Source of the DNA: Thermoanaerobaculia bacterium
GTDB lineage: Bacteria > Acidobacteriota > Thermoanaerobaculia > UBA5066 > Gp7-AA6
Assembly: GCA_035457525.1 (NCBI GenBank)
Contig: DATIBN010000268.1
Location: 1 to 61,271 of the forward strand
Direction of reading: 5' to 3'
DNA length: 61,271 bases
Program-made: the position numbers and the translations under genes
Notes under the pieces: model-generated
What the model was told of the DNA's origin: nothing
The model's database searches: none
The model's input: only the letters and a program-made list of their open reading frames with translations
In this document: piece after piece, positions 30,726-61,086 of the stretch
How positions within the stretch are numbered: position 1 is the stretch's first letter
How the letters are laid out: each line of letters starts with the position of its first letter

Positions 30726-30769
30726 CATCATGGGAACGAATTGCTGACATCTCTCGTTCTGCTGCGCGC

Positions 30770-41874: not shown

Positions 41875-41899
41875 GATTTCGTGTCTGTCGAAAAAACGG

Positions 41900-42781
41900 T
41901 CAGGTCTTCGAGACTCGAGCTCCTGTCCTGTGGTCCGCCCTCCAAGGATAACCGGGATCGGCGGCGCCGCGACGGACGGCGGTCACCTCCGCGAGGATCG
42001 AGACGGCGATCTCTTCCGGGGTCACGGCGCCGATCGCGAGCCCGATGGGCGCCCGGACCTGCCGGAGCCTGTCCTCCGAAACCCCTTCCTCCGCGAGACG
42101 GGTCAGAACGCCCCGGACCTTCCGGGCGGAGCCGATCAAGCCGAGATAGCGCGACGGCGGCCCGTCGGCCGCGACCCAGGGGCGCAGGGCCGCGAGATCG
42201 GTCTCCCAGCAGCGCGAGACGATCGCCACGTACCGGTCGCGCCCGCGCGGGAGCGCTTCCGAGGGGAGGTCGTAGTTCCGGGTCGTCCGCACGGCTCTCA
42301 CCCCCGCCGCGAACCGCTCGGGCCGGGAGTACTCTTCGCGGTCGTCGCCGACGGTGACGTCATAGCCCAGGTCGCGGCCAAGCCGAGCAAGGGCTCTGCC
42401 AACGTGACCGCCGCCGAGGATCACGAGCGAAGGCGAGGCCTTCAGGAGCTCGATCGACACGCGCGCCGAGCCGCCGCAGATCATGTTCGTCGGCTCGCGC
42501 TCCTGCCCCGACTCGATCTCCCGCTCGAAGAAGTCGTACCACTTGAGGATCCGCGCGGGGCCCCCGTCCCGGAAGAGCGCGCCGGCGTCGGCGACGACGA
42601 GCGCCTCGAAGGGGCCGCCGCCGATCGTGCCCTCGAAGCCGCCGTCCTCGAAGATCAGGAACCGCCGCCCGATGCGCGACGGGCCGGAGCCCCGGGTCTC
42701 GACCACGCTCGCGAGTACCACCCGGCCACGCTCCTCGAGCTTCGCCGTCAGGTCCCGATAGAAGGTCTCGTCGCCGCTCAC
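41900..42781 (-). CDS. XdhC/CoxI family accessory protein
   Basis: N-terminal XdhC_CoxI region (VLASVVETRGSGPSRIGRRFLI) and a Rossmann-like LVILGGGHVGRALARLG. The last about 9 codons and the stop lie in a solo repeat arm. Confidence 0.75.
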   Translation of the reverse strand: MSGDETFYRDLTAKLEERGRVVLASVVETRGSGPSRIGRRFLIFEDGGFEGTIGGGPFEALVVADAGALFRDGGPARILKWYDFFEREIESGQEREPTNMICGGSARVSIELLKASPSLVILGGGHVGRALARLGRDLGYDVTVGDDREEYSRPERFAAGVRAVRTTRNYDLPSEALPRGRDRYVAIVSRCWETDLAALRPWVAADGPPSRYLGLIGSARKVRGVLTRLAEEGVSEDRLRQVRAPIGLAIGAVTPEEIAVSILAEVTAVRRGAADPGYPWRADHRTGARVSKT

Positions 42782-42815
42782 GGATCAATTTTAGCGGGCT
42801 GGTAGCATCCGCGCG

Positions 42816-43685
42816 ATGCCGAGCGTCAAGGTAGCGGTCTTCCCGGCGGCCGGGCTGGGGACCCGATTCCTCCCCGCCACCAAGGCGCAGCCCAAGGAGA
42901 TGCTTCCTTTAGTCGACCGCCCCCTCGTTCAGTACGTCGTCGAGGAAGCGAAAGCTGCCGGGATCGAGCGCATCGTGATCGTGACGGGGCGCGGGAAAAA
43001 CGCGATCGAGGACCACTTCGACACGTCGTTCGAGCTCGAGAAGCTGCTCGAGGACCGCGGCAAGGAGGACCTGCTCGCCATCGTGCGCGAGATCTCCGAC
43101 ATGATCCCGCTCGCCTATGTCCGCCAGAAACAGGCGCTCGGCCTCGGGCACGCGATCCTCCAGGCGAAGGACCTCGTGGGTAACCAGCCGTTCGCCGTCA
43201 TGCTCGGCGACGACATCGTGGACTCCGTCGAGCCCTGCATCGGGCAGATGATGCGGCTCTTCGAGGAGCGCGGAAACCCCGTGATCGCCGTACAGGAGGT
43301 CCCGCGCGAGGAGACCCGCCAGTACGGCATCGTCGCGGGGGTCAAGGAAAACGAGCGCGTCGTCCGGATTTCCGGAATGGTCGAAAAGCCGTCGCCCGAA
43401 AAGGCGCCCTCGAACCTCGCCATCATCGGGCGGTACATCCTTCCCCCCGAGATCTTCGAGATCCTGGAGGAGACGCGATCCGACGCCGGCGGCGAGATCC
43501 AGCTCACCTCGGGGCTGGCGACGCTCCTCGACCGCCGTCCCATCGACGGCTACCTCTTCGAGGGCACGCGCTACGACGCCGGCGACAAGCTCGGGTTCCT
43601 GAAGGCGACGGTCGAGTTCGCGTTGAAGAGGAAGGACCTGGGTGAGCCGTTCCGGGAGTACCTGAAGACCTTGAAGCTCGACTAG
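42816..43685 (+). CDS. galU: UTP--glucose-1-phosphate uridylyltransferase
   Basis: VFPAAGLGTRFLPATKAQPKEMLPLVDRPLVQYVVEE..., the canonical GalU N-terminus. 289 aa. Confidence 0.92.
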   Translation: MPSVKVAVFPAAGLGTRFLPATKAQPKEMLPLVDRPLVQYVVEEAKAAGIERIVIVTGRGKNAIEDHFDTSFELEKLLEDRGKEDLLAIVREISDMIPLAYVRQKQALGLGHAILQAKDLVGNQPFAVMLGDDIVDSVEPCIGQMMRLFEERGNPVIAVQEVPREETRQYGIVAGVKENERVVRISGMVEKPSPEKAPSNLAIIGRYILPPEIFEILEETRSDAGGEIQLTSGLATLLDRRPIDGYLFEGTRYDAGDKLGFLKATVEFALKRKDLGEPFREYLKTLKLD

Positions 43686-43700
43686 ATCCTGGGGGATCCT

Positions 43701-43771
43701 GGGGTCAGGCAGGCATTTTGGTGTTTCGGTCGCGGATGGGGCATCTAAAGCCAAACCCCACGCCTGACCCC
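43701..43771. repeat. 71-bp subfamily A element GGGGTCAGGC...GCCTGACCCC
   Basis: 10-bp perfect terminal inverted repeats. The interior GCATTTTGGTGTT resembles the 50165 copy. It is preceded by a tandem GATCCTGGGG GATCCTGGGG. Confidence 0.85.
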
Positions 43772-43775
43772 AGTC

Positions 43776-43817
43776 AGCCGTATCCGGGAGTACCTGAAGA
43801 CCTTGAAGCTCGACTAG
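43776..43817 (+). repeat. Relic duplicate of the last ~41 nt of galU, including its stop codon
   Basis: 43783-43817 is identical to 43651-43685 (35/35). The match extends to AGCCGT with one extra base. Its CTAG also supplies the stop of the convergent zinc-ribbon gene. Confidence 0.9.
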
Positions 43818-44128
43818 TCTCTGGACTTCGGCTTTTTCGGTTTCTCCGGCTTCTCTTTCTTCTCGCTCTTGTCAGCGCTCGAGTCCTTCGACTCTCCCGA
43901 TCCTTCCTTCGTGTCGGCGGCCGCTTCCTTCTTCTTCTGCTCCCCTTTCGACCCGGCGTAGTCGGTCACGTACCAGCCCGAGCCCTTGAACTGGATCGCG
44001 GGCACCGAGAACGCCTTCTTCAGCTTGCCGCCGCAATGCGGACAGATCTTCAGCGGCTTCTCGCCGACCCGTTGGATCGCTTCGGTCCGGCGGCCGCACG
44101 CCTCGCAGTCGTATTCGTAAATCGGCAT
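43814..44128 (-). CDS. FmdB-family zinc-ribbon protein with a Lys/Glu-rich tail
   Basis: MPIYEYDCEACG...CPHCGG, followed by a low-complexity K/E/S tail. 104 aa. Confidence 0.8.
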   Translation of the reverse strand: MPIYEYDCEACGRRTEAIQRVGEKPLKICPHCGGKLKKAFSVPAIQFKGSGWYVTDYAGSKGEQKKKEAAADTKEGSGESKDSSADKSEKKEKPEKPKKPKSRD

Positions 44129-44167
44129 CGGGAATTCTCGGCGTTCGGAGTCTCGAACCGCGCCCGC

Positions 44168-44932
44168 TCAGCCGCCGAGGGATCCGCCCTCCGTCTTCCA
44201 TTGTATTTTCCGCCCGCCGGGAGCCTCTTTCACCCGCACGAGGTCGAGACAGAAGAAGGCGTAGAGAAGTCGCGCGTTCTCCGCGACGCTTCCGGGCCCG
44301 CGCTGACAGAGGATCTGGACGGGCGTGCGCCCGTCCACGAGGCCGCGCAGGGAGATCTCCTCGGGCGTGAAGACGCCCGGCGCGAGCGCCGCCTCCGCCT
44401 GCTCGAGTACGGCATGGCCGGAGCCCAGCCGGTCGACGAACCGCCGCACGTTCGCGGCTCGCCGTATGCCCTCCACGATGACCCGGGTGATCGAGAGGTC
44501 GATGCGCACGGTCTCGCCCTCACGCGCGCCGCCCACCTCGAACACCACCTCCCCGTCGTCCCAGTCGAACGCGCCCCAGAGGATCTCGCGCACCTGGTCC
44601 GCGACGGCGGCCTCGAGCGTGGCCGAATCGAGGAGCTCGAGCCGCAGGAGGACCTGGCCCAGACGGATCCCGTCCCCGGCGAGCCGGGATTCGGCGCTGT
44701 GGACGGCGTCCTCGGGCAGAGTGCCGTGCCGGATGAGGTAATTGCCGAGACGGACCTCGCGCTCGTTGGAGGTCGCGAAGATCACGAGGCCGTTGTCCAG
44801 GTAGATCCGCCGATGCGCGTCGCCGCGCTTCACCGAGAGCGCTCCGGGAACGCGGTAGCGCTCGATCGTGGCGAGGATCTCGGGCAGTGGAGTGACCGCG
44901 AGATCTCCGCGGTACTCGAACTTCTTTTCCAT
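44168..44932 (-). CDS. DUF4388 domain-containing protein
   Basis: N-terminal GDLAVTPLPEILATIERYRVPGALSVKRG fits the DUF4388 (PatA-N-like) pattern. 254 aa. Confidence 0.6.
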   Translation of the reverse strand: MEKKFEYRGDLAVTPLPEILATIERYRVPGALSVKRGDAHRRIYLDNGLVIFATSNEREVRLGNYLIRHGTLPEDAVHSAESRLAGDGIRLGQVLLRLELLDSATLEAAVADQVREILWGAFDWDDGEVVFEVGGAREGETVRIDLSITRVIVEGIRRAANVRRFVDRLGSGHAVLEQAEAALAPGVFTPEEISLRGLVDGRTPVQILCQRGPGSVAENARLLYAFFCLDLVRVKEAPGGRKIQWKTEGGSLGG

Positions 44933-45000
44933 GAGCGGGATTCGTCATCCATGGTACCCGAACTCGACGTTTTCCGCCGCCATCTAGAATCGGCGCCGAC

Positions 45001-46197
45001 ATGATCACGGTGGACGAGGCGTACGCGATCCTGGACCTCGCCGTTGCGCCGCTGCCCCCGGAGGACGTACCGCTGCGGCAGGCGCGGGATCGCGTCGTCG
45101 CCGCCGACGTGGCGTCGGACGTGGACTGGCCGCCGTTCGATACCTCCGCGATGGACGGGTACGCGGTCCGGGCGGACGAGGTCCGCGGGGAAGGCGCCCT
45201 CCGGGAACGTCCCGGGCTCGTCGCCGCCGGCGACCCGCCGCCGACGCCGCTCTCTCCCGGGGAGGCGGTTCGGCTCATGACCGGCGCGCCGCTGCCCGCC
45301 GGCGCCGACGCCGTCGTGCCGGTCGAGCTCTCGCGGCGGGAGGGGGGCCGCGTCGTTTTCGAGCGGATCCCGGAGGCCGGCGCTCACCTGCGACGCCGGG
45401 GCGAAAGCGTCGCGCGGGGGACCGTTCTCCTGCGCGCCGGGGACCGGCTCGGGGCGCGGGCCGTCGCGCTCGCCGCTCTCGCCGGGAAGGACCCGGTGGC
45501 CGTGCGCCGCCGCCCGCGGGTCGCGGTCGCGGCGACGGGCAACGAGCTCGTCTCCGCGGACGGCCGGCCGGCTGCGGGAAAGATGCGCGACTCGAACGGC
45601 CCCATGCTCGAGGCGCTGTGCGGAGCACGCGGGTGGCCGGTCGTCCGCCTCGAGAGGGTCGCGGACGAACCCGCCGCCGTCGCGCGGCTCTTCGACGGCT
45701 TCGACGACGCCGACGTCCTCGTGACGAGCGGCGGCGTTTCCGCGGGAGATCTCGACCTTCTGCCCGCCGCCGCGCAGACGATGGGATGGGAGATCCTCTT
45801 CCATCGCGTCGCGGTTCGTCCGGGAAAACCGATCGCGTTCGCGCGGCGCGGCGGCCGGTTCTGGTTCGGCCTTCCGGGCAACCCGGTGTCCGCGTCGGTC
45901 ACCTTCCACCTCTTCGTGCGGCGGGCGCTCGATCGGATGGAAGGCGTCGATCCCCCGGGCGCGCCCGCCGTCGCGGCCCGGCTCGTGAGCGCACTCGGCC
46001 CGCCGGGGCCGCGGGAGACCTACCAGGACGCCGTGCTGTCGGAGAAGGACGGTCTCCGCCGCGTCGAGGCCCTCGAGACGGCCGGGAGCCACGACATCGC
46101 GGCACACGCCCGCGCGAACGCGCTCATCCTTCTGCCGGCCGGCGCCGGCCCGCTCGAAAGAGAATCGGTCGTGACATGCGTGCTGCTCGACCGGTAG
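45001..46197 (+). CDS. moeA: Molybdopterin molybdenumtransferase
   Basis: DWPPFDTSAMDGYAV, MTGAPLP, SGGVSAGDLD, V.VRPGKP, the MoeA signature blocks. Confidence 0.88.
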   Translation: MITVDEAYAILDLAVAPLPPEDVPLRQARDRVVAADVASDVDWPPFDTSAMDGYAVRADEVRGEGALRERPGLVAAGDPPPTPLSPGEAVRLMTGAPLPAGADAVVPVELSRREGGRVVFERIPEAGAHLRRRGESVARGTVLLRAGDRLGARAVALAALAGKDPVAVRRRPRVAVAATGNELVSADGRPAAGKMRDSNGPMLEALCGARGWPVVRLERVADEPAAVARLFDGFDDADVLVTSGGVSAGDLDLLPAAAQTMGWEILFHRVAVRPGKPIAFARRGGRFWFGLPGNPVSASVTFHLFVRRALDRMEGVDPPGAPAVAARLVSALGPPGPRETYQDAVLSEKDGLRRVEALETAGSHDIAAHARANALILLPAGAGPLERESVVTCVLLDR

Positions 46198-47003
46198 GGC
46201 GCGACCGCCGGAGGAGCGCCCGGGCGGCGAGGCGCGCGGCGCGGGCCCCCGAGCCCATCCCTCTGCGTACGCTCACCTCCGACGGCGTCCCGATCGCCTA
46301 CACGCTCTGGAGGCGGCCTTCGCACGAGCTCCTGATCCTCGCTCCCGGCTTCTGGCGCCGGAGGCAGGCTCGCGAGAACCTCTACCTCGCGACCCATTTC
46401 GCACGCCTCGGGTACGACGTCGCCACCCTGGACTTCCGCGGCCACGGCGACAGCGGCGGAAGGTACGCGTTCGGAGCGAAGGAGTCGCTGGACGTCGAAG
46501 CCGTGGTCAACGAGCTCGTCGGGGCGGGCCGGCCGTACTCGAGGTTCGGTCTCATCGGCCTCTCGATGGGGGGATCGATCGCTGCGCAGGCGCTCGCGAA
46601 ATTTCCCGACCTTCCCTGCCGGGCTCTCGTCATGATCTCTTCGCCCGCCGACGTCAAGGCGTTGAAGCCGCGGCCGCTCTCGCGCGACGCGATCCGGCAG
46701 CTCCGGCTGCGACACGCGCTCCGCATGCCACGGATCGCGATCCGCCATTTCCGCGGCCCCAAGCCGCGCGCGGCGGAGGCCGTGGAAAAACTCACGATGC
46801 CGAAGCTGATCGTCACCGCGGAGAGGGACTGGCTCGTCGATCCGTCCCACGGCCGGGAGCTCGCGGAGCGGGCGGCCCCGCCGTGCGACTACGTGCACCT
46901 CGACCTGCCCGGGTCACTCCATGCGGACGCGATGGTCAAGTACGTGCCGCTGCGTCTGTTGCGGATGCTCGATCGCTGGCTCTCGACCAACGCTCCGCCT
47001 TAA
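46176..47003 (+). CDS. Alpha/beta hydrolase
   Basis: ATG 46176 (22-nt overlap with the moeA end). HG-type oxyanion region FRGHGDSGG and nucleophile elbow GLSMGG. Confidence 0.7.
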   Translation: MRAARPVGRDRRRSARAARRAARAPEPIPLRTLTSDGVPIAYTLWRRPSHELLILAPGFWRRRQARENLYLATHFARLGYDVATLDFRGHGDSGGRYAFGAKESLDVEAVVNELVGAGRPYSRFGLIGLSMGGSIAAQALAKFPDLPCRALVMISSPADVKALKPRPLSRDAIRQLRLRHALRMPRIAIRHFRGPKPRAAEAVEKLTMPKLIVTAERDWLVDPSHGRELAERAAPPCDYVHLDLPGSLHADAMVKYVPLRLLRMLDRWLSTNAPP

Positions 47004-47054
47004 GCAAACGCTTAGCAAACGATTTCGCACGGCAGCTGCAACTAGAATCCCGCC

Positions 47055-48314
47055 GTGCCGCAACGCCGCGCCGTCATCACCGGAATCGGGTGCCTGTCCC
47101 CCAACGGGAACGGGCGGGAGGCCTTTGCCGGGGGTCTCAAGGCCGGAGAGTCCGGCATCGACCGCATCTCCCTCTTCGACCCGGAAGGGCTGCCGGTTAC
47201 GATCGCCGGTGAGGTCAAGGGCTTCGACCCGATGCGCTGGATCGGCGCCAAGGACATCCGGCACGTTTCGCGCGCCGTCCCCCTGGCGATCGCGGCCTCG
47301 TCCGAAGCCCTCGAGGACGCCGGCATCGACGCGACGCGGCTGTCGCTCGAGGAGCGGCGGGAGTTCGGCGTCGTGCTCGGAACCGGGGGCGGCGCGATCG
47401 AGTTCACCGAGCGGATGTACCACCTCTATTACACGAACCAGACGAAGAAGGCGTCGATCTACTCCATCCCGTCCGGGACGATCGGCACGCTTTCTTCCGA
47501 GATCTCCATGGAGTTCGGCCTTCGCGGGCTTTCGCACGTGGTGTCGACCGGGTGCGCGTCGTCCACGGACGCTCTCGGCTACGCCTTCCGCGCGATCAAG
47601 CATGGAGCCAACGGCGGCATGTACCTCGCCGGCGGCGTGGACGCGACGGTCGTGCGCGGGATCATGGAGGGGTTCGTGATGATGCGGATCGTCTCCACGG
47701 CGTGGGAGTCGGAGCCTTCGCGCGCCTCGCGCCCCTTTTCGGCGGACCGCGACGGCTTCGTGCTCGGCGAGGGCGCGTGGATGTTCGTCATCGAGGAACG
47801 CGAGCGGGCGCTGGCGCGCGGCGCGAAGATTTACGGGGAGATCCGGGGATACGGCGCCACCTGCGACGCCCACCATCGCGTCCGCCTCGACGAGACCGGC
47901 GAGGAGCCGGCCCGCGCGATGGCGCTCGCGATCGAGGAGGCCGGTCTCCGCCCCGACGCGATCGACTACCTCGCGTACCACGGCACCTCGACCGCGTTGA
48001 ACGACCGCGTCGAGACGAAAGCGGTCCGGCGGGCCTTCGGCGCGGCCGCGGAAAGGCTGCCGGGCTCGTCGATCAAGTCGATGATCGGCCATCCTCAGGG
48101 AGCGTGCGGCGCGGCCGGGGTCGCCGCGACCCTCCTCGGGATGCGCGACTCCTTCCTGCCGCCCACCATCAACCTCGACGCGTCCGATTCCGAGTGCGAT
48201 CTCGACTACGTCGCCAACGCGGCGCGCGAAACGTCTTTCGAGAACGCGCTCTGCAACTGCATCGGGTTCGGGTCGAAGAACAGCGCGCTGGTGATCTCGC
48301 AGTCGAACGCGTGA
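47055..48314 (+). CDS. Beta-ketoacyl-ACP synthase, KAS I/II (FabF-like) family
   Basis: RRAVITGIGCLSPNG, active-site TGCASS, CDAHH and YHGTST His motifs, SIKSMIGHPQGA. GTG start. No ACP gene adjacent. Confidence 0.85.
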   Translation: MPQRRAVITGIGCLSPNGNGREAFAGGLKAGESGIDRISLFDPEGLPVTIAGEVKGFDPMRWIGAKDIRHVSRAVPLAIAASSEALEDAGIDATRLSLEERREFGVVLGTGGGAIEFTERMYHLYYTNQTKKASIYSIPSGTIGTLSSEISMEFGLRGLSHVVSTGCASSTDALGYAFRAIKHGANGGMYLAGGVDATVVRGIMEGFVMMRIVSTAWESEPSRASRPFSADRDGFVLGEGAWMFVIEERERALARGAKIYGEIRGYGATCDAHHRVRLDETGEEPARAMALAIEEAGLRPDAIDYLAYHGTSTALNDRVETKAVRRAFGAAAERLPGSSIKSMIGHPQGACGAAGVAATLLGMRDSFLPPTINLDASDSECDLDYVANAARETSFENALCNCIGFGSKNSALVISQSNA

Positions 48315-49012
48315 ACCTGCTCGTCCCCCCTCGCCGGCCCTCCGACGAGATCCTGGACGACCCCGCGATTGCCCCGGAAGAGATGTACCGCTCGCTCCAG
48401 GACCTCGCCCTCGTCAACCGCTGGTGGGGCAGCGCGCGGGCCCTCCGGCAGTTTCTCGTCCGGGAGATCCGGCGTTCTCACGCGGTGCGGCCGGTGGTGC
48501 TCGACCTGGGCGCGGGGTCCGCGGACGTCTCGCGCCGCCTCGCCCGGTCGCTCTCGCGGGCGGGTCACCCGGCGACGGTCGTCGCGTGCGACGTCCAGTG
48601 GCGGCACCTCATTGCCGGCCGCCGCATGGCGGACAACGACCTCCCCTCCCTCGCGGGCGACGCCTTCGACCTGCCTCTCCCCGAGAAGTCCGTGGACTGG
48701 ATCGTCTCGACGCTCTTCTTCCATCACTTCTCGCCGGCCGAGAACGCCCGCCTGCTCGAGTCCTTCGCGCGGATCGCGCGCCGGGGGTTCGCGCTCCTCG
48801 ACCTGACACGCCACGTCCTGCCCCTCGCCTTCATCGCGGTCGCCGGACGCATCCTGTTCAAGACGCCCGTCTCGGTCGCGGATGGCATCGCCTCCGTCCG
48901 GCAGGCCTACACGCCCGAGGAGGCGATCGAGATCGCGCGCCGGTCGGTGCCCGGGGCCCGCGTCGACCGCGTGTTTCCCTTCCGGTATCTGCTGTCGGCC
49001 ACGACCCCTTGA
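48311..49012 (+). CDS. Class I SAM-dependent methyltransferase
   Basis: GTGA overlap with the KAS stop. SAM motif I VLDLGAGSADV. 233 aa. Confidence 0.75.
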   Translation: MNLLVPPRRPSDEILDDPAIAPEEMYRSLQDLALVNRWWGSARALRQFLVREIRRSHAVRPVVLDLGAGSADVSRRLARSLSRAGHPATVVACDVQWRHLIAGRRMADNDLPSLAGDAFDLPLPEKSVDWIVSTLFFHHFSPAENARLLESFARIARRGFALLDLTRHVLPLAFIAVAGRILFKTPVSVADGIASVRQAYTPEEAIEIARRSVPGARVDRVFPFRYLLSATTP

Positions 49013-50142
49013 GCGAGGCCTTCGACGCCGTCGTCGTGGGCGCCGGGCCGGCCGGCTCCGCGGCCGCGGCGGTGCTCGCAGAGCGCGGACGCTCCGTCCT
49101 CCTCCTCGAGAAAGACGTCTTCCCGCGCCACAAGGTCTGCGGCGAGTTCCTCTCCGCCGACGCGCTCCCGAGCCTGGATCGGATCGGCGCGCGCCGGGAG
49201 ATCGAAGACGCCACCCCGGAGAGGATGACGCGCGGCGCGTTCCACCTCGCGGGAGGAAGAGTGGTGTCGTTTCCGCTGCCGGCCCCGGCTCTCGGGCTGT
49301 CGCGTCATCGGTTCGACGACCTGCTCGCGCGCCGCGCAAGCGGCGCCGGCGCCGACGTGCGGTTCGCGGCGCGCGTTCTGTCGGTGGAGCCCGCGCCGGA
49401 GAGCGGCTTCCGCGTTCGCTTCCTCCACCGGCAGCGGGAGAGCGAAGCGGTGGCCACGGCCGCGATTGGGGCCTGGGGACGCTGGGACTCGCTCGACCGC
49501 GCACTCGATCGCGGCTTTCTGGGTCGCCGCACCCGCTTCTTCGGCTGGAGCCGGGACTTCCGCGCCGACGGCGGATTCCTCGAGGGAGAGGTACGGCTAT
49601 ACCTCTTTGCCGGCGGCTACTGCGGCCTGTCGCGCGTGGAAGGGGGTGCCGTCAACCTCGCCGGGGTCGTCGCCGAGAAAGTCTGGAAGCGCGCGGGGGC
49701 GGGATGGGATTCCGTCGTGGATGGCGCGAGGCGCGGGAACCCCGCTCTCGACCGCGATCTCGCCCGGTTGACTCCGGGGCCCATCGGCTTTCTCGGGACG
49801 GGCCCGGTTTTCTTCACGAGGAAGCCGCCGGTGGAAAACGGCCTCCTCATGGCCGGCGACGCGGCGGGAGTCATCGATCCCTTCTCGGGCGAAGGCCAGG
49901 CCGCGGCGCTCGCGAGCGGAATCCTCGCGGCAGACACGGCCGAGCGTCTCCTCGCGGGAGAGCTCTCGCGTGCGGGTGCCGCGCAGACCTATGCCACGGA
50001 GTGGCGGAGGAGATTCGCGCGACGTTTCGCGTGGAGCGCCGTCTTCCGGCGCCTCGTGCTGAACGAGACGATCGGTGCGCTGGCCGGCCGGCTGGCGGGA
50101 GAGAGGCTGGTCCGGTTCGGCATCTCCGCCACGCGACGCTAG
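49009..50142 (+). CDS. FAD-dependent oxidoreductase (geranylgeranyl reductase / flavin monooxygenase-halogenase superfamily)
   Basis: TTG at 49009 (TTGA overlap). Dinucleotide fold DAVVVGAGPAGSAAAAVLAERG and a later GDAAG motif. Confidence 0.75.
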   Translation: MSEAFDAVVVGAGPAGSAAAAVLAERGRSVLLLEKDVFPRHKVCGEFLSADALPSLDRIGARREIEDATPERMTRGAFHLAGGRVVSFPLPAPALGLSRHRFDDLLARRASGAGADVRFAARVLSVEPAPESGFRVRFLHRQRESEAVATAAIGAWGRWDSLDRALDRGFLGRRTRFFGWSRDFRADGGFLEGEVRLYLFAGGYCGLSRVEGGAVNLAGVVAEKVWKRAGAGWDSVVDGARRGNPALDRDLARLTPGPIGFLGTGPVFFTRKPPVENGLLMAGDAAGVIDPFSGEGQAAALASGILAADTAERLLAGELSRAGAAQTYATEWRRRFARRFAWSAVFRRLVLNETIGALAGRLAGERLVRFGISATRR

Positions 50143-50164
50143 TCGTGGCTGAGGACGGGTAGCC

Positions 50165-50224
50165 GGGGTCAGGCGTGCAGTTTGGTGTTATTCGGCGACA
50201 ACGCCAAAATACATGCCTGACCCC
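50165..50224. repeat. 60-bp subfamily A element GGGGTCAGGC...GCCTGACCCC
   Basis: Perfect 10-bp arms. The interior TTTGGTGTT...AACGCCAAA pairs with one G-T position, so the whole element is an extended hairpin. Confidence 0.9.
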
Positions 50225-50315
50225 TCGTGCTGAACGAGAGGATCGGGGCGCTGGCCGGCCGGCTGGCGGGAGAGAGGCTGGTCCGGTTCGGCATCTCCGC
50301 CACGCGACGCTAGTC
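50225..50315 (+). repeat. Relic duplicate of the last 91 nt of the oxidoreductase gene, including its stop
   Basis: 50225-50315 against 50054-50144: 89/91 identical by direct reading. Mismatches are at 50240 and 50247. Confidence 0.92.
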
Positions 50316-50320
50316 CTCGC

Positions 50321-51055
50321 CTAAAGCCCCCGGGCCCCCTCCGGCGTGAAGATCCTCGGGTCGATCCGAGCGGTCCGATACTTCCGGTACTCGAGCCGCG
50401 TCACAGCGTTCGACGCCGGGCCGAGGAGGTCTCTCACCTCCATCTCGGCCACGACCGTCCGGCCGTTCAAAGTCTGGAACTTCGTGAAGGTGACGGCACG
50501 TACCTCCTTGCCCGACGCGAGGAAGAACCGCACCCGGCAGGGGACCCTTTCGCGCTCGTCCACCGACAGCAGGATGCGCGGGTAGGAAGATCGCGCGGAC
50601 TTCGCCGTGAGCTCGAGAACGCGGCAGCTGCGATCCGCAACGCTCTCCTTCTCGTCCGCGTCCTTCGCGACGTAGTCCTCCGAGAAGCGAAGGCGGGAGA
50701 CGTCGCCGAACGACGCACCGCCCAGGAGCCGCTGGTTGGCCGTGATCGGCACCGGGTTGGTCGAGCCGGGAACGAGCAGCCACATCTTGTCGCCGTTCGT
50801 GAGCACCTTGCGGCCGCTGTTCTTCCCGCCGCGAAACACGATGAGTCCCCTGTCGCGACCCTTCACGTAGACGTCGAAGTCCGCGGTCCCGGTCTCCTTT
50901 CCGCCGACGATCTGGGTCGCACGCGCGGTGATGACCGCCTCGTCGAACGCGTTGCGCGTCGCGTCCACTGCGGCCAGGAGTCCCTGCAGGTCCTCCGCGG
51001 CGACCGAAGTCGCGAGCGAAAGGAGGATGGCGAGCGCCAAATGCGTTCTTCTCAC
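50321..51055 (-). CDS. LolA-like outer membrane lipoprotein-sorting protein
   Basis: GTG at 51055. Signal peptide VRRTHLALAILLSLATSVAA, then about 220 aa of beta-rich sequence of the LolA-like/DUF4367 type. Adjacent to the FtsX permease and ABC ATPase. Confidence 0.65.
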   Translation of the reverse strand: MRRTHLALAILLSLATSVAAEDLQGLLAAVDATRNAFDEAVITARATQIVGGKETGTADFDVYVKGRDRGLIVFRGGKNSGRKVLTNGDKMWLLVPGSTNPVPITANQRLLGGASFGDVSRLRFSEDYVAKDADEKESVADRSCRVLELTAKSARSSYPRILLSVDERERVPCRVRFFLASGKEVRAVTFTKFQTLNGRTVVAEMEVRDLLGPASNAVTRLEYRKYRTARIDPRIFTPEGARGL

Positions 51056-51090
51056 GGTGAGTTCAACACCGCACCGAGCCTGCGTGTTCC

Positions 51091-52383
51091 TCAGACGTGG
51101 GCGAGCGCGTCCACGATCGGCATCCTCGCCGCCCGGCGCGCCGGGAACCACGAGGCCACGATCATCGTCACGACCATCGTCACGACTCCGGCGGCGTACG
51201 CGAGCGGGTAGAGCCGGACGTTGATGGGCATCCCGTGAGTGGCGCCGGGAGGCGGCGGCAGGATGAGCCCGGAGGCGTTCAGGACGGCCCGGACGAGCAG
51301 AGCGAGCAGACCACCGACGACGCAGCCCGCGAGCGCCAGCACCGCGCCTTCGGCGAGGAACATCTTCTGAACGACGGCCGGCCGGGTTCCGATCGCGCGC
51401 AGGGTTCCGATCTCGCGCGTGCGTTCGGTGGCCGCCATGGTCATCACGATCGCCGCCGAGAGGATGACGATGACGACGAGCACCGCACCCACGAACCCGA
51501 AAATGCCGATGTAGAGCAGCTTGACCTGCCCGTAGAAGACGGCGAGGTCTTCCCACTTGCGGACGGCGACCGGAAATCCGGCGGAGACGAGCGCGCGCTC
51601 GACCTCCCGCGCCGCGCGATCCTCGTCGACCCGTTTCTTCAGGAAGATCACGAGCTTGGAAACCGTGTTCGAGGTCTCCAGAAGTCGCGACACGTGCGCG
51701 ATTCCGGCCGCGAGATAGCGATCGTTCAGCTCCTTGATGCGGACGTCCACGAGACCCGTGACCACGGCGTCGACGGCGTTCAACGATCCCTCCGGGGTCG
51801 TCGCGAGAAGCGTCACGCGATCCCCGGTCTTCGCCCCGAGCGAAGCGGCGAGGCCGGTCCCCAGAACGGCCTCCGGTCCGTCGGCGCTCGTGAGATAGCT
51901 TCCCGCCACCACGAGTTCTCCCGCGAGGCTGGACGACTGTTCGGGTTTCGGATCGACGCCCAATCCCAGGAAGGGCACGGACTTCGCGCCGTTCGTGGCG
52001 AGGCCCACGAACTCGATGCGCGGCAGGACGGCGTCCACGCCGGCGACGCGCGCCGCGATCGCCCGCGCGCGTTCCGCGTCCTGCAGCCCGAACTCGAGCG
52101 TCGCGTCTTCGTTCCGGGCGACCGCCCGCCGGTCCACGACCTGTAGGTGGCCGACCGTACGGATCGTGCCTTCCTTCAATCCCTCGAAAGACTGCGCGAT
52201 GAACCCCCCCGCGAGGGCGAATGCCGCGAACCCGAACGCGACGACCGAGCCCATGAGGAGCGTCCGGCGCTTCTGGCGAACGAGGTTCCTCCACGCGAGC
52301 GCCCAGGAATTCAAGCCCGATCCTTTGTCGCGGCGGCTCGACGCCGCCGGTAGAGAGCAGACGGCCGCGGAGCAACATCCCAT
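51091..52383 (-). CDS. ABC transporter permease, FtsX/LolC/E-MacB type
   Basis: N-terminal TM, a large periplasmic domain, and C-terminal FtsX TMs (REIGTLRAIGTRP). An alternative TTG start at 52314 gives the more typical N-terminus LNSWALAWRNLVRQKRRT. Confidence 0.8.
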   Translation of the reverse strand: MGCCSAAVCSLPAASSRRDKGSGLNSWALAWRNLVRQKRRTLLMGSVVAFGFAAFALAGGFIAQSFEGLKEGTIRTVGHLQVVDRRAVARNEDATLEFGLQDAERARAIAARVAGVDAVLPRIEFVGLATNGAKSVPFLGLGVDPKPEQSSSLAGELVVAGSYLTSADGPEAVLGTGLAASLGAKTGDRVTLLATTPEGSLNAVDAVVTGLVDVRIKELNDRYLAAGIAHVSRLLETSNTVSKLVIFLKKRVDEDRAAREVERALVSAGFPVAVRKWEDLAVFYGQVKLLYIGIFGFVGAVLVVIVILSAAIVMTMAATERTREIGTLRAIGTRPAVVQKMFLAEGAVLALAGCVVGGLLALLVRAVLNASGLILPPPPGATHGMPINVRLYPLAYAAGVVTMVVTMIVASWFPARRAARMPIVDALAHV

Positions 52384-52411
52384 GGCCGTAGCGCAACACC
52401 GACCCGACTCG

Positions 52412-53113
52412 TCACTGGCGATCCTCCGTGATTCGACCGTCGGTCAGGGAGATGACGCGCTTCGCCCGTTCCACGACCCGCGGGTCGTGCGTGGCGAAAA
52501 GGAACGCGACCTCGCGCTCCTCGTTGCTCCGCCGCATGAGGTCGAGGATCTCGTCGGCCGTCTTCGAGTCCAGGTTCGCGGTCGGTTCGTCGGCGAACAC
52601 GACCGCGGGCCCGTTGGCGAGCGCGCGGGCGATCGCGACCCGCTGCCGCTGCCCTCCGGAGAGGAGGTCCGGCCTCACGCCGATCTTGTCGGCGCAGCCG
52701 ACGGCCGCGAGGAGTTCGCGCGCGCGGGAGCGGCGCTCCGCCGCCGGAACTCCGGCGAGGGCCAGCGGGTACGCGACGTTCTCCTCCGCCGTGAGGACCG
52801 GAATGAGGTTGAACGTCTGGAACACGAAACCGAACCGACCGCGGCGGACGTCGGACTTCGTGTTCTCGGAGAGGTCCACGGCGTTCGTGCCGTCGAGGAG
52901 GACGGCGCCGCGATCCGGGACGTCGAGCAGGCCGAGCACGTTCAGGAGCGTCGTCTTCCCGGAGCCGCTCGGCCCCCGGATGGCGATGAACTCACCGGGC
53001 CGGACGTCGAGCGACACGTCGTGCAGGGCGGGAACCGGCGCGGAGCCGAGCCGGTAGGACTTGGAGATCGACTGCGCGGACAGGAGCGGGGTGGATTTCG
53101 AAACGGGCGGCAT
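52412..53113 (-). CDS. ABC transporter ATP-binding protein (LolD/MacB-like)
   Basis: Walker A GPSGSGKTT, Q-loop, signature LSGGQRQR, Walker B VVFADEPT. Confidence 0.9.
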   Translation of the reverse strand: MPPVSKSTPLLSAQSISKSYRLGSAPVPALHDVSLDVRPGEFIAIRGPSGSGKTTLLNVLGLLDVPDRGAVLLDGTNAVDLSENTKSDVRRGRFGFVFQTFNLIPVLTAEENVAYPLALAGVPAAERRSRARELLAAVGCADKIGVRPDLLSGGQRQRVAIARALANGPAVVFADEPTANLDSKTADEILDLMRRSNEEREVAFLFATHDPRVVERAKRVISLTDGRITEDRQ

Positions 53114-53123
53114 CCCCGGCCCG

Positions 53124-53837
53124 TCAGTCCTCCAGGAAATACTGCACCGTGGTCACCACGCGGACCTTCTTGACCTCGGGGGAGAACGCGTCCCGGTCCT
53201 GGATGTCGAAGTAGCCCTGCTGCGCGGTGCGGATCGCGCCGACCCGGCTCCCGGAGTCCCGCGCGAACTGCTCGGCGGCCTTCCGTGCGTCCTTCGTCGC
53301 CTCGGCGATCATCGCCGGCTTGATCGTGTCGAGCGCCGTGTACAGGAACGTCGTGTTGTACTCGTAACTCCGGACGAGAGCGACGCCCTCCCGGATGAGC
53401 TCTCCCGACTGCTGCATCGCCACTTTCACCGGAGTGATCTTCCCGGACCGCAGCGTCACGGTCTGCTCGGCGACGTACCGGTCCCCGGCGTCTCCGCGCA
53501 TCCGGCCCCCCTGCGCTTCGCGGTCCGTCACCCGCGGCGAGGACAGGGTGTACTCGGCCGGCGTGAAGCCGCGCGCCTCGAGAAAGGCGAAGACCTTCTT
53601 CGCGCTCGCGTCGAGGGTCGCCTGGACCGTGACGAGGTCGTTGCCGGTCGTAGAAAAGACGATCGGCCACATCGCCAGGTTCGCCGGGACCTCGCGCTCG
53701 GCCAGGCCCTTCACGGTGACGACGCGTTCCGAAGCGCGCGCGGCAAAGAGGCCTCGGCCGATCAGGGCTCCCCCGCCGATCATTCCGATCGCGAGCGTGC
53801 CCCCGAAAACCAGGGTGGCGAGGCTCTCGTTCTTCAC
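53124..53837 (-). CDS. SIMPL (DUF541) domain-containing protein
   Basis: One N-terminal TM, then sequence of the SIMPL/BP26 type (..VTVKGLAEREVPANLA...; C-terminal ..VRVVTTVQYFL). 237 aa. Confidence 0.65.
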   Translation of the reverse strand: MKNESLATLVFGGTLAIGMIGGGALIGRGLFAARASERVVTVKGLAEREVPANLAMWPIVFSTTGNDLVTVQATLDASAKKVFAFLEARGFTPAEYTLSSPRVTDREAQGGRMRGDAGDRYVAEQTVTLRSGKITPVKVAMQQSGELIREGVALVRSYEYNTTFLYTALDTIKPAMIAEATKDARKAAEQFARDSGSRVGAIRTAQQGYFDIQDRDAFSPEVKKVRVVTTVQYFLED

Positions 53838-53871
53838 AGCGCGCCTTCCGGCGCGATCATAACCGGAGCCG

Positions 53872-54249
53872 CTACCTCTCGCCGCGGCGCGCGAGATTCC
53901 GTCCGGCCGCCGCGCCGGCCGCGAGGACCAGGCCGCCGCCGAGAAGAAAGAGAGACAGCGTCAGCGGAAGCACGAGGCCGCTCGCCGACCCCTCCAGCCA
54001 CCGGAGCAGTGACACGCCGTTCGAGCCCGCCAGCGCCGCGAGGACTCCGGCCGCGAGCGCGAGCGAGATCCAGTGCGCCGTTTGGACGGGACGGCTCGCG
54101 CCGCGGCGCGCTTCGAGCGCCTCGAGCAGCCGGGCTTTGCGCCAGAGGACAGCGGGATCGGGAAGCTCGGACGACGGAGGCGGCACGTCGCGAAGCGCGC
54201 GCACCACGCCTCGGATTCGGGACTCTTCGTTCGATTCGAGAGTCTTCAA
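53872..54249 (-). CDS. Putative anti-sigma factor / small membrane protein
   Basis: TTG at 54249 (TTGA overlap with the sigma stop). 125 aa with two hydrophobic helices. Assigned by position only. Confidence 0.4.
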   Translation of the reverse strand: MKTLESNEESRIRGVVRALRDVPPPSSELPDPAVLWRKARLLEALEARRGASRPVQTAHWISLALAAGVLAALAGSNGVSLLRWLEGSASGLVLPLTLSLFLLGGGLVLAAGAAAGRNLARRGER

Positions 54250-54812
54250 GAGAGCACCTCCGGCCCGATTCCCATGCGGTCGAGGACGCCTGCGAGCCGC
54301 CGCCTCGCCCGGAAGAGCAGCACCTTGATGCTTCCGCGCGAGAGCCCGAGCGCGCGACTGATTTCGCGGTGGTCCATTCCTTCGGCGTAGGCCAGCCACA
54401 GGAGCGCGCGCTCGCGCGGTTTCAACGCGGCAAACGCCCGGTCGAGCTCCCGCCGGCGGATCAGGTCGGATTCGCCGCCGCGCCCTTCGGATGTCGCGAC
54501 GTCCGCCTCGAGGGTCTCCACGGCGCGGCGCGCGGAGTGGCGCCACCAGTCGGCCGCGAGGTTCGTCCCGATCCGGTACACGTACGCTCTCCACTCGCTT
54601 CGCGATGCCGGTATCCGCGCGCGGCAGAACCGCAGGTACGTCTCCTGGAGGAGGTCGTCCGCGAGAGTGCGGTTGCCGCAGATCCTCGCGAGGTAACCCC
54701 AGAGCGGCCGCGCCGTCTCGCGATAGAAAGTCTCGAACTCGGTCTGAGTCACCGGGACCGGCTCCGCGCCAGAAAGAGCCAGAGAGCCTCCGAGCGCGAC
54801 ATCGACGATCAT
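54246..54812 (-). CDS. ECF (sigma-70 family) RNA polymerase sigma factor
   Basis: Region 2 (LADDLLQETYLRF...YVYRIGTNLAADWWR) and region 4 (RERALLWLAYAEGMDHREISRALGLSRGSIKVLLFRARRRL). Confidence 0.85.
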   Translation of the reverse strand: MIVDVALGGSLALSGAEPVPVTQTEFETFYRETARPLWGYLARICGNRTLADDLLQETYLRFCRARIPASRSEWRAYVYRIGTNLAADWWRHSARRAVETLEADVATSEGRGGESDLIRRRELDRAFAALKPRERALLWLAYAEGMDHREISRALGLSRGSIKVLLFRARRRLAGVLDRMGIGPEVLS

Positions 54813-54831
54813 CGAGCCCCCGCGCCCCGAC

Positions 54832-55323
54832 TCAAGCGCTCATCTCCGGGCCCGTCACCTTGCCGGACGGAGACAGAAGGCCCATCGATCGGGCCAGGCG
54901 GTACGACAGCGCGCTCGAAGCGAGATACCCGATGCCGAGCGCGAGGCAGACCGTCCCGACGATGCGGATGAACTCCTCGACGGCCGTGGCGTAGATCGCC
55001 AGCGAAAGGAGGAGGAGTCCCACGCCGAGCACCGTGAGGACGATCCCACGCTGCACGGCCGATAGAATCTTCTCGCCGACGCCGTTCGGCTCGGATCCGA
55101 GCGCTTCGAGGAGGCGCCGGCCGCCCGGCGACTCGGAGACCTCGATGAAGTCGCGGCTCGACCCGAACTTGTCGAGCACCCGGTTCAAGAGGTCGGCGTG
55201 CGACCGGATCGCCTGCGTTCGGCGGCGCGACTCGAGGACCGCCGTGATGACCGCCGCGATCGTGTAAAAAAACGCCAGCCCGACGATCATCGGCGGCAGG
55301 AAGTCGAGGATTTTTTCGCCCAT
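54832..55323 (-). CDS. Hypothetical membrane protein
   Basis: ATG 55323 with GAGGGGGG upstream. Three to four TM helices. No recognised family. Confidence 0.5.
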   Translation of the reverse strand: MGEKILDFLPPMIVGLAFFYTIAAVITAVLESRRRTQAIRSHADLLNRVLDKFGSSRDFIEVSESPGGRRLLEALGSEPNGVGEKILSAVQRGIVLTVLGVGLLLLSLAIYATAVEEFIRIVGTVCLALGIGYLASSALSYRLARSMGLLSPSGKVTGPEMSA

Positions 55324-55380
55324 GGTGTCCCCCCTCACCACTCACAACGGATGAGAGCGGCGAAAGGTTAACGGCGAGTT

Positions 55381-55478
55381 TGGCGGAAGCGCATGGGAAT
55401 CGAACCCACCCATCCCGGCGAAGCCGGGATGCCAACGGATTTGAAGTCCGCGAGAGCCACCAGGCCCCGGGCGCTTCC
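55381..55478 (-). tRNA. selC: tRNA-Sec (anticodon UCA)
   Basis: The reverse complement reads GGAAGCGC CC GGGGCC TGGT GGCTCT C GCGGA CTTCAAA TCCGT T GGCATCCCGGCTTCGCCGGGATG GGTGGGTTCGATTCCCAT GCGCTTCC G CCA. It has an 8-bp acceptor stem, a 6-bp D stem, a UCA anticodon and a long variable arm, the same layout as E. coli selC. Confidence 0.9.
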
Positions 55479-55504
55479 GCGGGCGGATTATGTCGGAACC
55501 GGGA

Positions 55505-56275
55505 TCATCCCGGCAGATTCCGAAGGAGAACGCCGACCGCGTACGCCGCCGCGGCGGCGGCCGACCCCACGCCGAGCGTCTCCAGCCCGGAACGCCACCA
55601 CGACTGCGGCGACCAGCGGCTCTTGAGCGAGCCGATCGCGAAGAAGACCAGGGCCGACGCCACCATGGCCGGGCCGAAGGCGTCGGCGGCTCCGAAGAGG
55701 TAGGGAACGATCGGCACGAGGCCGCACACCACGAACGCAACGAAGGTACTGGCGGCCGCGCGAAGGGGCGACCGCACTTCTTCCGGCATTCCGTACTCCT
55801 CCCGGAGCATCGTTTGAACCCATCGCGTGCGGTCCGAGGTGATGGCCTCCACGACGCGCTCCAGCGGCTCGCCGTCGAGCCCCTTGCCGCGGAAGATCTG
55901 TCGGATCTCTTCCCGCTCGCCTTCGGGGACCTCGTCGATGTGACGATGCTCGATCGCCTCCAGCCGCTCCAGTTGATCGCGCTCCGCGCGCGTCCCGAGG
56001 AAGTTGGCGGCGGCCATGGAGAAGCCGTCCGCGAGAAGGTTGGCGAACCCCAGGATCAGGACGATTTTCGAAGAGAGGCGCGCGCCGGCGACCCCCGAAA
56101 CGATCGCGAAGGTCGTGACCACGCCGTCGATACCACCGTAGATCCAGTCCCGGAGGAAGCTCGGGCGGAACGTCCTCGAGAGTCGTTCGCGGATCGCCTC
56201 GGGCGAATGCCCGTGCTCGAGCATCGCAGAGCGGCGGGCGGAGGGAACCGACGAGGAGGTGTCTCTCCGCCGCAT
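55505..56275 (-). CDS. VIT1/CCC1 family iron/manganese transporter
   Basis: LRDWIYGGIDGVVTTFAIVSGVAGA, a central coiled/metal-binding region, and C-terminal TMs. The start could instead be M18 (56224). Confidence 0.75.
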   Translation of the reverse strand: MRRRDTSSSVPSARRSAMLEHGHSPEAIRERLSRTFRPSFLRDWIYGGIDGVVTTFAIVSGVAGARLSSKIVLILGFANLLADGFSMAAANFLGTRAERDQLERLEAIEHRHIDEVPEGEREEIRQIFRGKGLDGEPLERVVEAITSDRTRWVQTMLREEYGMPEEVRSPLRAAASTFVAFVVCGLVPIVPYLFGAADAFGPAMVASALVFFAIGSLKSRWSPQSWWRSGLETLGVGSAAAAAAYAVGVLLRNLPG

Positions 56276-56298
56276 CCCTGCTCTGTGACGACCGTCGG

Positions 56299-56718
56299 CT
56301 ACGAGACCGTCGTGCCGACGCCGGGAGCCGCAGGAACTTTCTTCTCGAGCCTCTCGGCGGCCATCGCGTCGGCCTTCGTCGGATGAACCGTTCCCTCCGC
56401 GTACTCGGGAGGCGCATACACCGTGACGATCTTCAGGTCTTCGTCGTCGTCCGAGTTCACGAGGTTGTGCTCCGTTCCGGCGGGCACGAAGACGACGTCG
56501 TTTTCCTCGACGTCGCGCTCGCGGCCGGCGACGACCGCCCGACCCTCCCCATCCAGCACGAACAGGATCTGATCGGTCTCGGGGTGGACTTCGCTGCCGA
56601 TCTCTTCCCCCGGGGCGAGGGTCATGAGCACCAGCTGGCTGCGTGCGCCGGTCGCGATGACCCGACGAAAATCGGAGCTGCGTTTCGCGATCTTCCTGAC
56701 GTCAATCAGAGAATCCAT
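56299..56718 (-). CDS. Cupin domain-containing protein
   Basis: ATG 56718 with AGGAG 7 nt upstream. G.E...HPETDQILFVLDGEG ... VFVPAGTEHN cupin motifs. Confidence 0.75.
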   Translation of the reverse strand: MDSLIDVRKIAKRSSDFRRVIATGARSQLVLMTLAPGEEIGSEVHPETDQILFVLDGEGRAVVAGRERDVEENDVVFVPAGTEHNLVNSDDDEDLKIVTVYAPPEYAEGTVHPTKADAMAAERLEKKVPAAPGVGTTVS

Positions 56719-56822
56719 CTCGAACTCCTTTCGCCGACTCAACGAGGAGACCACGGGACCGCCCCGCCGGCATGATCCGTTCGGATCACTTTTCGAGAAG
56801 CGAAGTCCGGTAGTAGAGTCCG

Positions 56823-57311
56823 GTGAATCCCGGAGAGAGCACCATTTCGAAGCCAGAAAACGCTCCCAGTGGTCGGATCGACTCGACCCGGATGCCGGGA
56901 GAGACGGCCCGCGGCGTCCCGGCGGCCTTCCCGGCCGAACGCGCGCTCATCCTCGTCGTCGAGCGGCACCCGGCGGTCCAGAAGCTCGAGAGCTTTCTCC
57001 TGACGGAAGCCGGCTTCCGGGTGGAGTTCGCGAGCAACGGTCAGGAGGCGCTCGACCGGGCCCGGACGGACCGGCCGTACCTCCTGGTCACGGAAATCCT
57101 CGTCCCGCGGGTCGACGGCCTGACGCTCTGCCGCCGGCTGCGGGAGGACCCGGCGACCCGGGAGATCCTCGTGGTCGTCTTCAGCCATCTCGACGCGGAA
57201 GACCGTGCGGTCGAGGCGGGCGCCGACGCTTTTCTTCGCAAGCCTCTGGACCCGGATCGGTTGATCGAGACCGTTCGTCGTCTCCTCGGCGGCCGGAAGA
57301 AGGCGGAATGA
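56823..57311 (+). CDS. Receiver-domain protein lacking the phospho-acceptor Asp (pseudo-receiver)
   Basis: CheY-like fold ILVVERHPAV...LLVTEILVPRVDG...VVVFSH...LRKPL. The acidic pair DD is replaced by ER and the phospho-acceptor Asp by Glu. The start is uncertain (GTG 56823 or ATG 56892). Confidence 0.7.
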   Translation: MNPGESTISKPENAPSGRIDSTRMPGETARGVPAAFPAERALILVVERHPAVQKLESFLLTEAGFRVEFASNGQEALDRARTDRPYLLVTEILVPRVDGLTLCRRLREDPATREILVVVFSHLDAEDRAVEAGADAFLRKPLDPDRLIETVRRLLGGRKKAE

Positions 57312-61010: not shown

Positions 61011-61086
61011 GGGGCTGTAGCTCAGTTGGGAGAGCGCCTGAATGGCATTCAGGAGGTCGACGGTTCGATCCCGTTCGGCTCCACCA
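61011..61086 (+). tRNA. tRNA-Ala (anticodon GGC), CCA encoded
   Basis: GGGGCTGTAGCTCAGTTGGGAGAGCGCCTGAATGGCATTCAGGAGGTCGACGGTTCGATCCCGTTCGGCTCCACCA. Cloverleaf with a G3:U70 pair and GGC in the anticodon loop. Confidence 0.92.

Follow-up and report, generated by a model that had tools for sequence, protein, structure and literature searches.

Occupied and empty hairpin sites read as a tandem at a duplicated gene end in a Thermoanaerobaculia contig

The DNA analysed here (the window) is a 61,271-nt stretch of Thermoanaerobaculia contig DATIBN010000268.1, in which the 3' end of a flavin adenine dinucleotide (FAD)-dependent oxidoreductase gene is present twice, once on either side of a short palindromic hairpin, at the point where that gene converges on a LolA-like gene. 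Compared with related contigs, the arrangement reads as a site occupied by the hairpin followed, in tandem, by the same site empty. Among the relatives compared, the extra gene-end copy is present in the window only. The duplication is probably real and would represent a local rearrangement specific to the lineage of the window; as both flanking genes are intact, the change is probably neutral.

To our knowledge, how hairpins of the REP, REPIN and terminal inverted repeat (TIR) types move and are lost is unsolved. Here one species-level population holds every state of one site (empty, occupied, and occupied plus empty in tandem), the boundaries of the element are known to the nucleotide and target duplication is absent, providing a concrete case on which precise excision and fork-associated template switching could be tested. 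The occupied-plus-empty arrangement could thus be informative on element excision. For annotation, the case indicates that a gene end repeated directly, over a long stretch, on both sides of a small palindrome does not necessarily point to an integrative element.

Structure of the duplicated gene end

A repeat search of the window gave a direct repeat of 98 nt at 96% identity (50052-50149 vs 50223-50320) with a core of 93 nt, 91 of them identical (Table 1). The two core mismatches are substitutions, C/G and T/G, and at both positions copy 1 agrees with the orthologue in the relatives L126/L249. A preliminary description of this DNA had placed the repeat within 2 nt of these core coordinates, and had correctly described the 60-nt hairpin with its perfect outer arms, the end of the second copy 5 nt short of the convergent LolA-like stop (50321-50323), and an insert without coding capacity. 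The FAD protein is identical to the protein labelled P0126, and its homologues are named FAD-dependent monooxygenase of Thermoanaerobaculia. The LolA-like C-terminus (...ARGL) is unchanged when its translation is compared with that of L122.

The DNA separating the two copies amounts to 78 nt. The spacer ends in 8 nt (GGGTAGCC) that form the left flank of the hairpin specific to this locus and are common to L126/L249 and L181. Within the hairpin the outer arms, GGGGTCAGGC/GCCTGACCCC, pair perfectly, and 25-nt arms are 84% complementary. Folding of the + strand gives -44 kcal/mol (z = -4.6, with 0/200 shuffles as stable) and of the - strand -41.3 kcal/mol (z = -5.2). The joint strings at this site are GCCTGACCCC/TCGTGCTG, the slash marking the joint as in all joints below, and CTAGTCCTCGCCTA.

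Table 1. Positions of the duplicated gene ends, the family hairpins and the genes beside them in the window
Feature	Positions	Strand	Description
FAD-dependent oxidoreductase gene	49009-50142	+	377 aa, intact; stop TAG 50140-50142; Pfam PF01494
Repeat copy 1	50052-50144	+	In-frame functional 3' end of the FAD gene plus TAGTC
Spacer	50145-50164	.	20 nt, GTGGCTGAGGAC + GGGTAGCC; from alignment
Hairpin element	50165-50224	.	60 nt, ends GGGGTCAGGC...GCCTGACCCC; GGGGWSAS-type, REP-like
Repeat copy 2	50223-50315	+	Non-coding, 2 substitutions; left joint overlaps the hairpin end by microhomology CCT(C)
Junction CGCTAGTCCTCGCCTA	50308-50323	.	FAD stop, 7-nt gap, LolA stop; exact junction of the element-free allele
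LolA-like lipoprotein-sorting gene	50321-51055	-	244 aa; Pfam PF17131
NTP-transferase gene	42816-43685	+	Pfam PF00483; last 39 nt (43647-43685) are copy 1
10-nt perfect tandem	43685-43704	.	GATCCTGGGG twice; straddles the left edge of the hairpin
Family hairpin	43701-43771	.	71 nt, internal orientation opposite; orthologous in L126/L249 and L124
Copy 2 of NTP-transferase end	43778-43817	+	40 nt, one extra A at 43782
Zn-ribbon gene (PF09723-like)	43814-44128	-	From the open reading frame list; synteny with L126/L249
Minimal family hairpin and tandem	4233-4310	.	24-nt hairpin, then a 31-nt tandem duplication taking in the last 8 nt of the hairpin
Family member	15117-15234	.	118 nt; 27-nt left-arm duplication (15105-15158)
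Family member	30634-30726	.	93 nt; between a TGA stop (30630-30632) and the next start codon

Three states of the site among relatives

Relatives were taken as syntenic contigs whose genes include a close homologue of the window's FAD protein, and can be grouped by the state of the FAD/LolA site. Group one, displaying the hairpin without the long duplication, includes L126/L249 (95.6-95.7% DNA identity to the window), L181 (about 82-90%) and L124 (about 72-79%). In L126/L249 the site runs TAGTCCTCG-GGTAGGC-hairpin-TCA, the TCA being the LolA stop. The NTP-transferase site, described below, is likewise occupied and unduplicated in L126/L249 and in L124. A flank of GGGTAG(C/G)C beside the hairpin is common to the window, L126/L249 and L181 and is not family-wide. 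Group two, displaying no hairpin, includes L250/L251 (about 91%), which lack it at both the FAD/LolA and the NTP-transferase sites and in which GGGGTCA occurs nowhere within 10.8 kb, and L247/L248 (94.5%), with a 15-nt gap at the FAD/LolA site. The gaps in the former are TAG-tcctcgc-CTA (7 nt, L250) and TAG-gaccgg-CTA (6 nt, L251). These alleles show that the element-free arrangement proposed in the preliminary description, two convergent genes a few nt apart, is real, and the further element copies and empty sites for which it proposed searching do exist, as four other family hairpins in the contig and the four hairpin-free relatives. Group three, displaying both states in tandem, is the window.

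The empty junction of L250 is the same string as the copy-2 junction of the window, CGCTAGTCCTCGCCTA, including the 7-nt gap. When L249 is aligned with L250, TAGTCCTCG[67-nt element]CCT(C)AGAG faces TAGTCCTCGCCTAGAG; no target base is duplicated, and the element is delimited with single-nucleotide precision as GGTAGGC...GACC. Measured against L250, the window carries a 78-nt insertion plus a 93-nt duplication at 50.2 kb, and 92 nt plus 39 nt at the other site. The polymorphisms of copy 2 are of the window/L249 type, not of the L250 or L247 type, and the copies differ from each other at 2/93 positions, a lower figure than the ~4.4% by which the window and L249 diverge. In sliding comparisons of the window with L249, L250 and L247, identity drops weakly past 50.2 kb, from ~96.3% to 94.9%, which is not decisive for a recombinant donor segment.

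Two features of L181 at the same junction may be recorded here. Across 49100-51020 of the window, the LolA-like gene is 89.9% identical to that of L181 and the adjacent FAD gene 82.1%, a contrast suggestive of a recombination boundary lying at, or close to, the hairpin junction. At positions 2030-2160 of L181, here an ~83% relative, the FAD/LolA junction holds small duplications of other kinds: a 21-nt copy of the left arm of the hairpin and, separating the hairpin from the LolA stop, CTAGggccaCTAG.

A second duplicated gene end at 43.7 kb

A duplicated gene end, here that of the NTP-transferase gene, likewise stands on either side of the hairpin at 43701-43771 (copies at 43647-43685 and 43778-43817). 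The geometry is the same as at 50.2 kb and both genes are again spared, which supports the reading given to the first site. Where the window has GATCCTGGGG twice, L249 has a single copy, GATCTTGGGG. Directly 3' of the hairpin lies AGTCAG (43772-43777), which holds the TCA stop used in relatives, and the novel joint string is AGTCAG/CCGTATCC. The terminal, palindromic CTAG of the second copy gives the convergent gene its in-frame stop: the CTA inside the duplicated CTAG now ends the Zn-ribbon gene and occupies the codon position at which relatives have TCA, and both proteins flanking the duplication are unchanged. This twin, together with the four hairpin end pairs other than that at 50.2 kb, had been overlooked in the preliminary description.

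Order of insertion and duplication

The hairpin at 50.2 kb is, on the evidence of these alignments, a single insertion that would predate the split between the window and L249. Since the hairpin and its left flank are shared with relatives free of the duplication, the duplication followed the insertion, and is neither a target-site duplication nor a pair of attachment sites. The earlier idea that the duplication was made on arrival of the hairpin does not survive the finding of the same hairpin and GGGTAG(C/G)C flank without duplication in L126/L249 (95.7%) and L181, nor that of the unduplicated hairpin of L124.

It is therefore improbable that the hairpin entered an empty site and, like IS1549 and IS1634, generated target-site duplications of long and variable length (93 and 39 nt) as it did so. 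The geometry at both sites, taken against L250, is that of an insertion plus direct target duplication, and copy 2 keeps the empty junction. IS1549/IS1634 are documented to produce long duplications of variable size, 8-514 bp (PMC2266710), and the IS1634 family resembles the window in having direct repeats, variable in length and tens to hundreds of bp long, around an inserted element. The IS1634-type elements are, however, DDE insertion sequences of 1.5-2 kb whose repeats are made at insertion, whereas the element in the window predates its repeat. The element occurs with its locus-specific flank but no duplication in the closest relatives and outgroups (L126/L249, L181, L124), and L249 against L250 shows the element without target duplication. 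The enzymes associated with the hairpins are Y1/HUH transposases, not DDE enzymes, and IS200/IS605-type transposition is not known to leave a target-site duplication.

The wider family gives the same picture. Exact-pattern scans for the hairpin ends covered a genome collection and a metagenome collection, with at least 120 DNA stretches each, and all family counts (208 to ~240 hairpins) were taken from the matches listed in these genome and metagenome loci. Of the 208 non-redundant family hairpins whose flanks are complete, only the two in the window were found to have a direct repeat spanning the hairpin; the other 206 carry no comparable repeats, and a target duplication of this kind was seen in none of about 228 other members listed.

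The preliminary description had likened the repeats to the attL/attR pair of an integrative element that rebuilds a gene end. Descent from a decayed element of this kind, or from the variable and template repeats of a diversity-generating retroelement, is extremely unlikely. Direct repeats that include a gene 3' end do flank non-native DNA, and the hairpin follows the first repeat, as in the targets of such retroelements. Positions 40989-58244 of the window are, however, colinear with L249, and no integrase, recombinase or reverse transcriptase domain was found among the called L249 genes of that region. Together with the occupied sites that lack a duplication, this rules the attL/attR analogy out. 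The insert is merely 78 nt and consists of an orthologous resident hairpin, the C/G and T/G mismatches are not adenine-specific, and repeat length is unequal between the two sites.

Proposed origin of the tandem

In the favoured model, to which an even chance is given, a DNA 3' end at the right-hand (far) boundary of the element was re-primed or joined on a copy of the locus free of the element. Microhomology of 2-4 nt, CCT(C) at 50.2 kb and AG at 43.8 kb, would have placed this end 93 or 39 nt upstream on that copy. The template could have been the sister strand after precise excision of the element, or an element-free allele in the same population. Copying would then have run through the gene end and straight over the empty junction, leaving an occupied site and, in tandem with it, an empty one. 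Equivalently, [gene end + element] could have been duplicated in tandem and the second element then excised precisely.

The left joint at 50.2 kb sets GCGCCTCGTG against GACCCCT(C). At 43.8 kb the left joint is TGAG/CCGT against TCAG/CCGT and the return joint CTAG/TC against TCAG/TC. As the element is missing from copy 2 with nucleotide precision, the new template would most likely have been an element-free copy of the locus. The arrangement resembles microhomology-mediated template switching or homology-facilitated illegitimate recombination in its joints of 2-4 nt, in the copying of nearby sequence and in the presence of a palindrome as a possible stall or break site. It differs from plain microhomology switching in that copy 2 reproduces the true element-free allele exactly, which points to an element-free template and not just to misalignment on the same strand. 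The background on template switching and illegitimate recombination is reportedly laid out by Lovett in 2004 and by de Vries and Wackernagel in 2002. Membership of the hairpin family, the three allelic states and the match of the second junction to an empty site are shown directly; the template-switch or recombination step is our inference, as is any role of a transposase.

Plain slippage in two steps would dispense with an element-free template: a microhomology-driven tandem duplication of [gene end + spacer + hairpin] would be followed by loss of the second spacer and hairpin. This is a doubtful explanation. Palindromes are prone to deletion by slipped misalignment, which speaks for it, as do complete tandem duplications spanning a family hairpin, with periods of 266 nt in L221 and 131 nt in L051. 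Partial duplications at element edges are also common, those at family hairpins of the window measuring 10, 27 and 31 nt (43685-43704, 15105-15158 and 4249-4310). The loss would nevertheless need to recreate exactly the sequence present before insertion (TAGTCCTCG/CCTA), yet there is no direct repeat at the boundaries of the element. A jump over the stem base would leave GGTAGCC, and hence a misjump on the same strand is disfavoured. If the second element were instead lost by precise excision of the transposase type, slippage would merge with the favoured model. An earlier version of the slippage account, with the hairpin simply ancestral and the copy a product of slippage, was revised after the hairpin-free alleles and the exact empty junction in copy 2 were found.

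An assembly artefact, for example a mis-join of co-existing hairpin-bearing and hairpin-free strains, is judged very unlikely from the form of the joints and copies. The contig apparently comes from a metagenome-assembled genome, its close homologues are all from metagenomes or such genomes, both allele types co-exist in the species, and the joints have no independent support in metagenome_contigs or in exact-protein look-ups. Against this, the novel joints share only 2-4 nt, too short for a k-mer or overlap mis-join, and the copies differ by 2 substitutions at one site and a 1-nt indel at the other. Palindrome artefacts usually yield inverted, not direct, duplications, and the same clean, gene-preserving structure is found at two sites. 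Should slippage or an artefact hold, the feature would be an ordinary neutral rearrangement.

A more specific version of the template-switch model is that both tandems are footprints of a Y1 (TIRYT) transposase at the replication fork. The hairpin would be cut precisely from one template strand, and the nascent strand still carrying the hairpin would switch to the element-free sister. This version is speculative and on balance unlikely. If true, it would be the first sequence-level trace of excision of a REP/REPIN-type hairpin, and direct repeats of 39-93 nt would offer a path to scarless loss of the element.

Several observations weigh against the favoured model. No TIRYT gene was found in the 61-kb contig by tblastn. 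The joints lie 0 ± 2 nt from the foot of the hairpin at one site and +4 to +6 nt at the other, and with unequal distances a single site-specific cut does not fit. The first-copy spacers differ from L249 (12 nt vs 3 nt at one site, a 10-nt tandem at the other), and such remodelling implies more than one event per site. No empty allele matching the 43.7-kb duplication is present among the relatives at hand. The junction 24-mer was not found in metagenome_contigs, and exact-protein look-ups with the NTP-transferase, Zn-ribbon, LolA-like and FAD proteins gave no other long contig. Finally, the two duplications stand 6.4 kb apart in the window and none occurs among the more than 200 other family hairpins listed, a clustering that is unaccounted for.

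The hairpin family

Five GGGGTCAGG...CCTGACCCC hairpins are present in the contig, all intergenic, and the 50.2-kb element is one of them. In 5/5 the ends GGGGTCAG and CTGACCCC stand in inverted orientation and fit GGGGWSAS; the inverted end pairs besides that at 50.2 kb are at 4233-4256, 15117-15234, 30634-30726 and 43701-43771. At the third of these the apparent ATG of the next co-directional gene is at ~30729-30731, so that the palindrome reaches the neighbourhoods of both the stop and the start codon (30630-30732).

Among the matches listed, family hairpins are spread over many phyla, and their interiors vary in sequence yet remain palindromic. Stop codons within 12 nt are enriched on both sides (108/228 and 105/228, vs 61 and 59 in the reverse-strand control). 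The base just outside the hairpin is biased, with T before GGGG in 91/228 (G in only 18) and A after CCCC in 85/228 (C in only 18), and the conserved core is therefore TGGGGTCAGG...CCTGACCCCA. Partial copies of a hairpin's own end within 50 nt are direct in 60/232 hairpins and inverted in 22/232, which marks the element edges as rearrangement hot spots. A constant break after GGGGTCA was sought in these partial edge copies and was not found; their lengths are broad (5-25 nt, mode 7), and there is thus no clear site-specific cut.

Rfam gave no family for the hairpins, either for the whole window at gathering score, where tRNA-Sec and one tRNA were the only matches, or for the local region at E <= 10 (best E = 3-5). 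The terminator scan called neither of the two duplication-flanked hairpins because neither has a U tract, a T run being absent from both strands. A full-text literature search with the hairpin 9-mers brought up unrelated eukaryotic papers and nothing else.

A 28-nt flanking repeat in L014 was considered as a target duplication and rejected, since it represents two abutting copies of a longer planctomycete unit resembling a miniature inverted-repeat transposable element. In the Planctomycetota loci L012, L013, L014, L053, L072, L083, L091, L118 and L120, many of the GGGGTCAGG hairpins form the centre of such a longer unit; the units have outer inverted repeats CTAGTGCTTTGTCACAG and abut one another at CTAG.

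Relation to TIRYT repeats and Y1 transposases

From its ends and distribution, the hairpin would be an additional member of a described class, the TIRYT-associated GGGGWSAS REP-like repeats. The TIRYT/TIRtron class comprises RAYT-like Y1 proteins with a helix-turn-helix (HTH) tail, whose flanking inverted repeats share GGGGWSAS (Di Nocera et al. 2013, PMC3733652; Quentin et al. 2018, PMC6006769). The latter study places them in subclass 2.1 of the TnpA_REP-like Y1 proteins, with an HTH/Bac_DnaA_C tail, and Acidobacteria are reported to possess a TIRYT group of their own (PMC3733652 / PMC6006769). Like TIRtron repeats, the window hairpins are non-coding, multi-copy inverted dimers (hairpins) with GGGGWSAS ends. 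Unlike those repeats as described, the window has a long gene-end duplication and an occupied-plus-empty tandem, neither of which was found described for the class. Insertion without target duplication, as in the Y1 type, is seen in L249 against L250 at one site only.

Similarities to the REP/REPIN sequences of RAYT systems include an extragenic palindrome at gene ends and the absence of target duplication; the cognate enzyme of REP/REPIN sequences is a single-copy Y1 transposase. A preprint (bioRxiv 10.1101/2021.07.10.451892) describes REP/REPIN sequences as vertically inherited and retained at orthologous sites. REPs classically carry a GTAG tag, which is not a feature of the present family, GTAG being found within 12 nt upstream in 10/228 and CTAC downstream in 9/228 of the matches listed; the ends are GGGG. 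At 24-118 nt, the window hairpins are also longer than classical REPs of 20-40 nt.

Clustering of the open reading frames around ~240 hairpin loci was used to find associated proteins. The largest clusters are generic (kinases, ABC, SDR), and the Y1_Tnp cluster alone is informative. Genes for Y1_Tnp (IS200-like; PF01797 with or without PF08299 Bac_DnaA_C) lie near family hairpins in 4 of the ~240 listed loci, L009, L038, L115 and L183, and the Y1_Tnp + Bac_DnaA_C gene of L009 has family hairpins on both sides. In L183, five tandem units of 12-13 nt (AGGCATGGGGTC) lie directly upstream of the Y1_Tnp gene (995-1070); the array, iteron-like and built from the core motif, is a candidate binding array for the transposase.

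Apart from the hairpins, the tRNA-Sec gene (55385-55478, - strand) and the tRNA gene (61011-61083, + strand) are 5.5 kb apart in the window and adjacent in L124 (17567-17816), a spacing that, set against this more distant relative, indicates that DNA has been inserted or rearranged between the two tRNAs.

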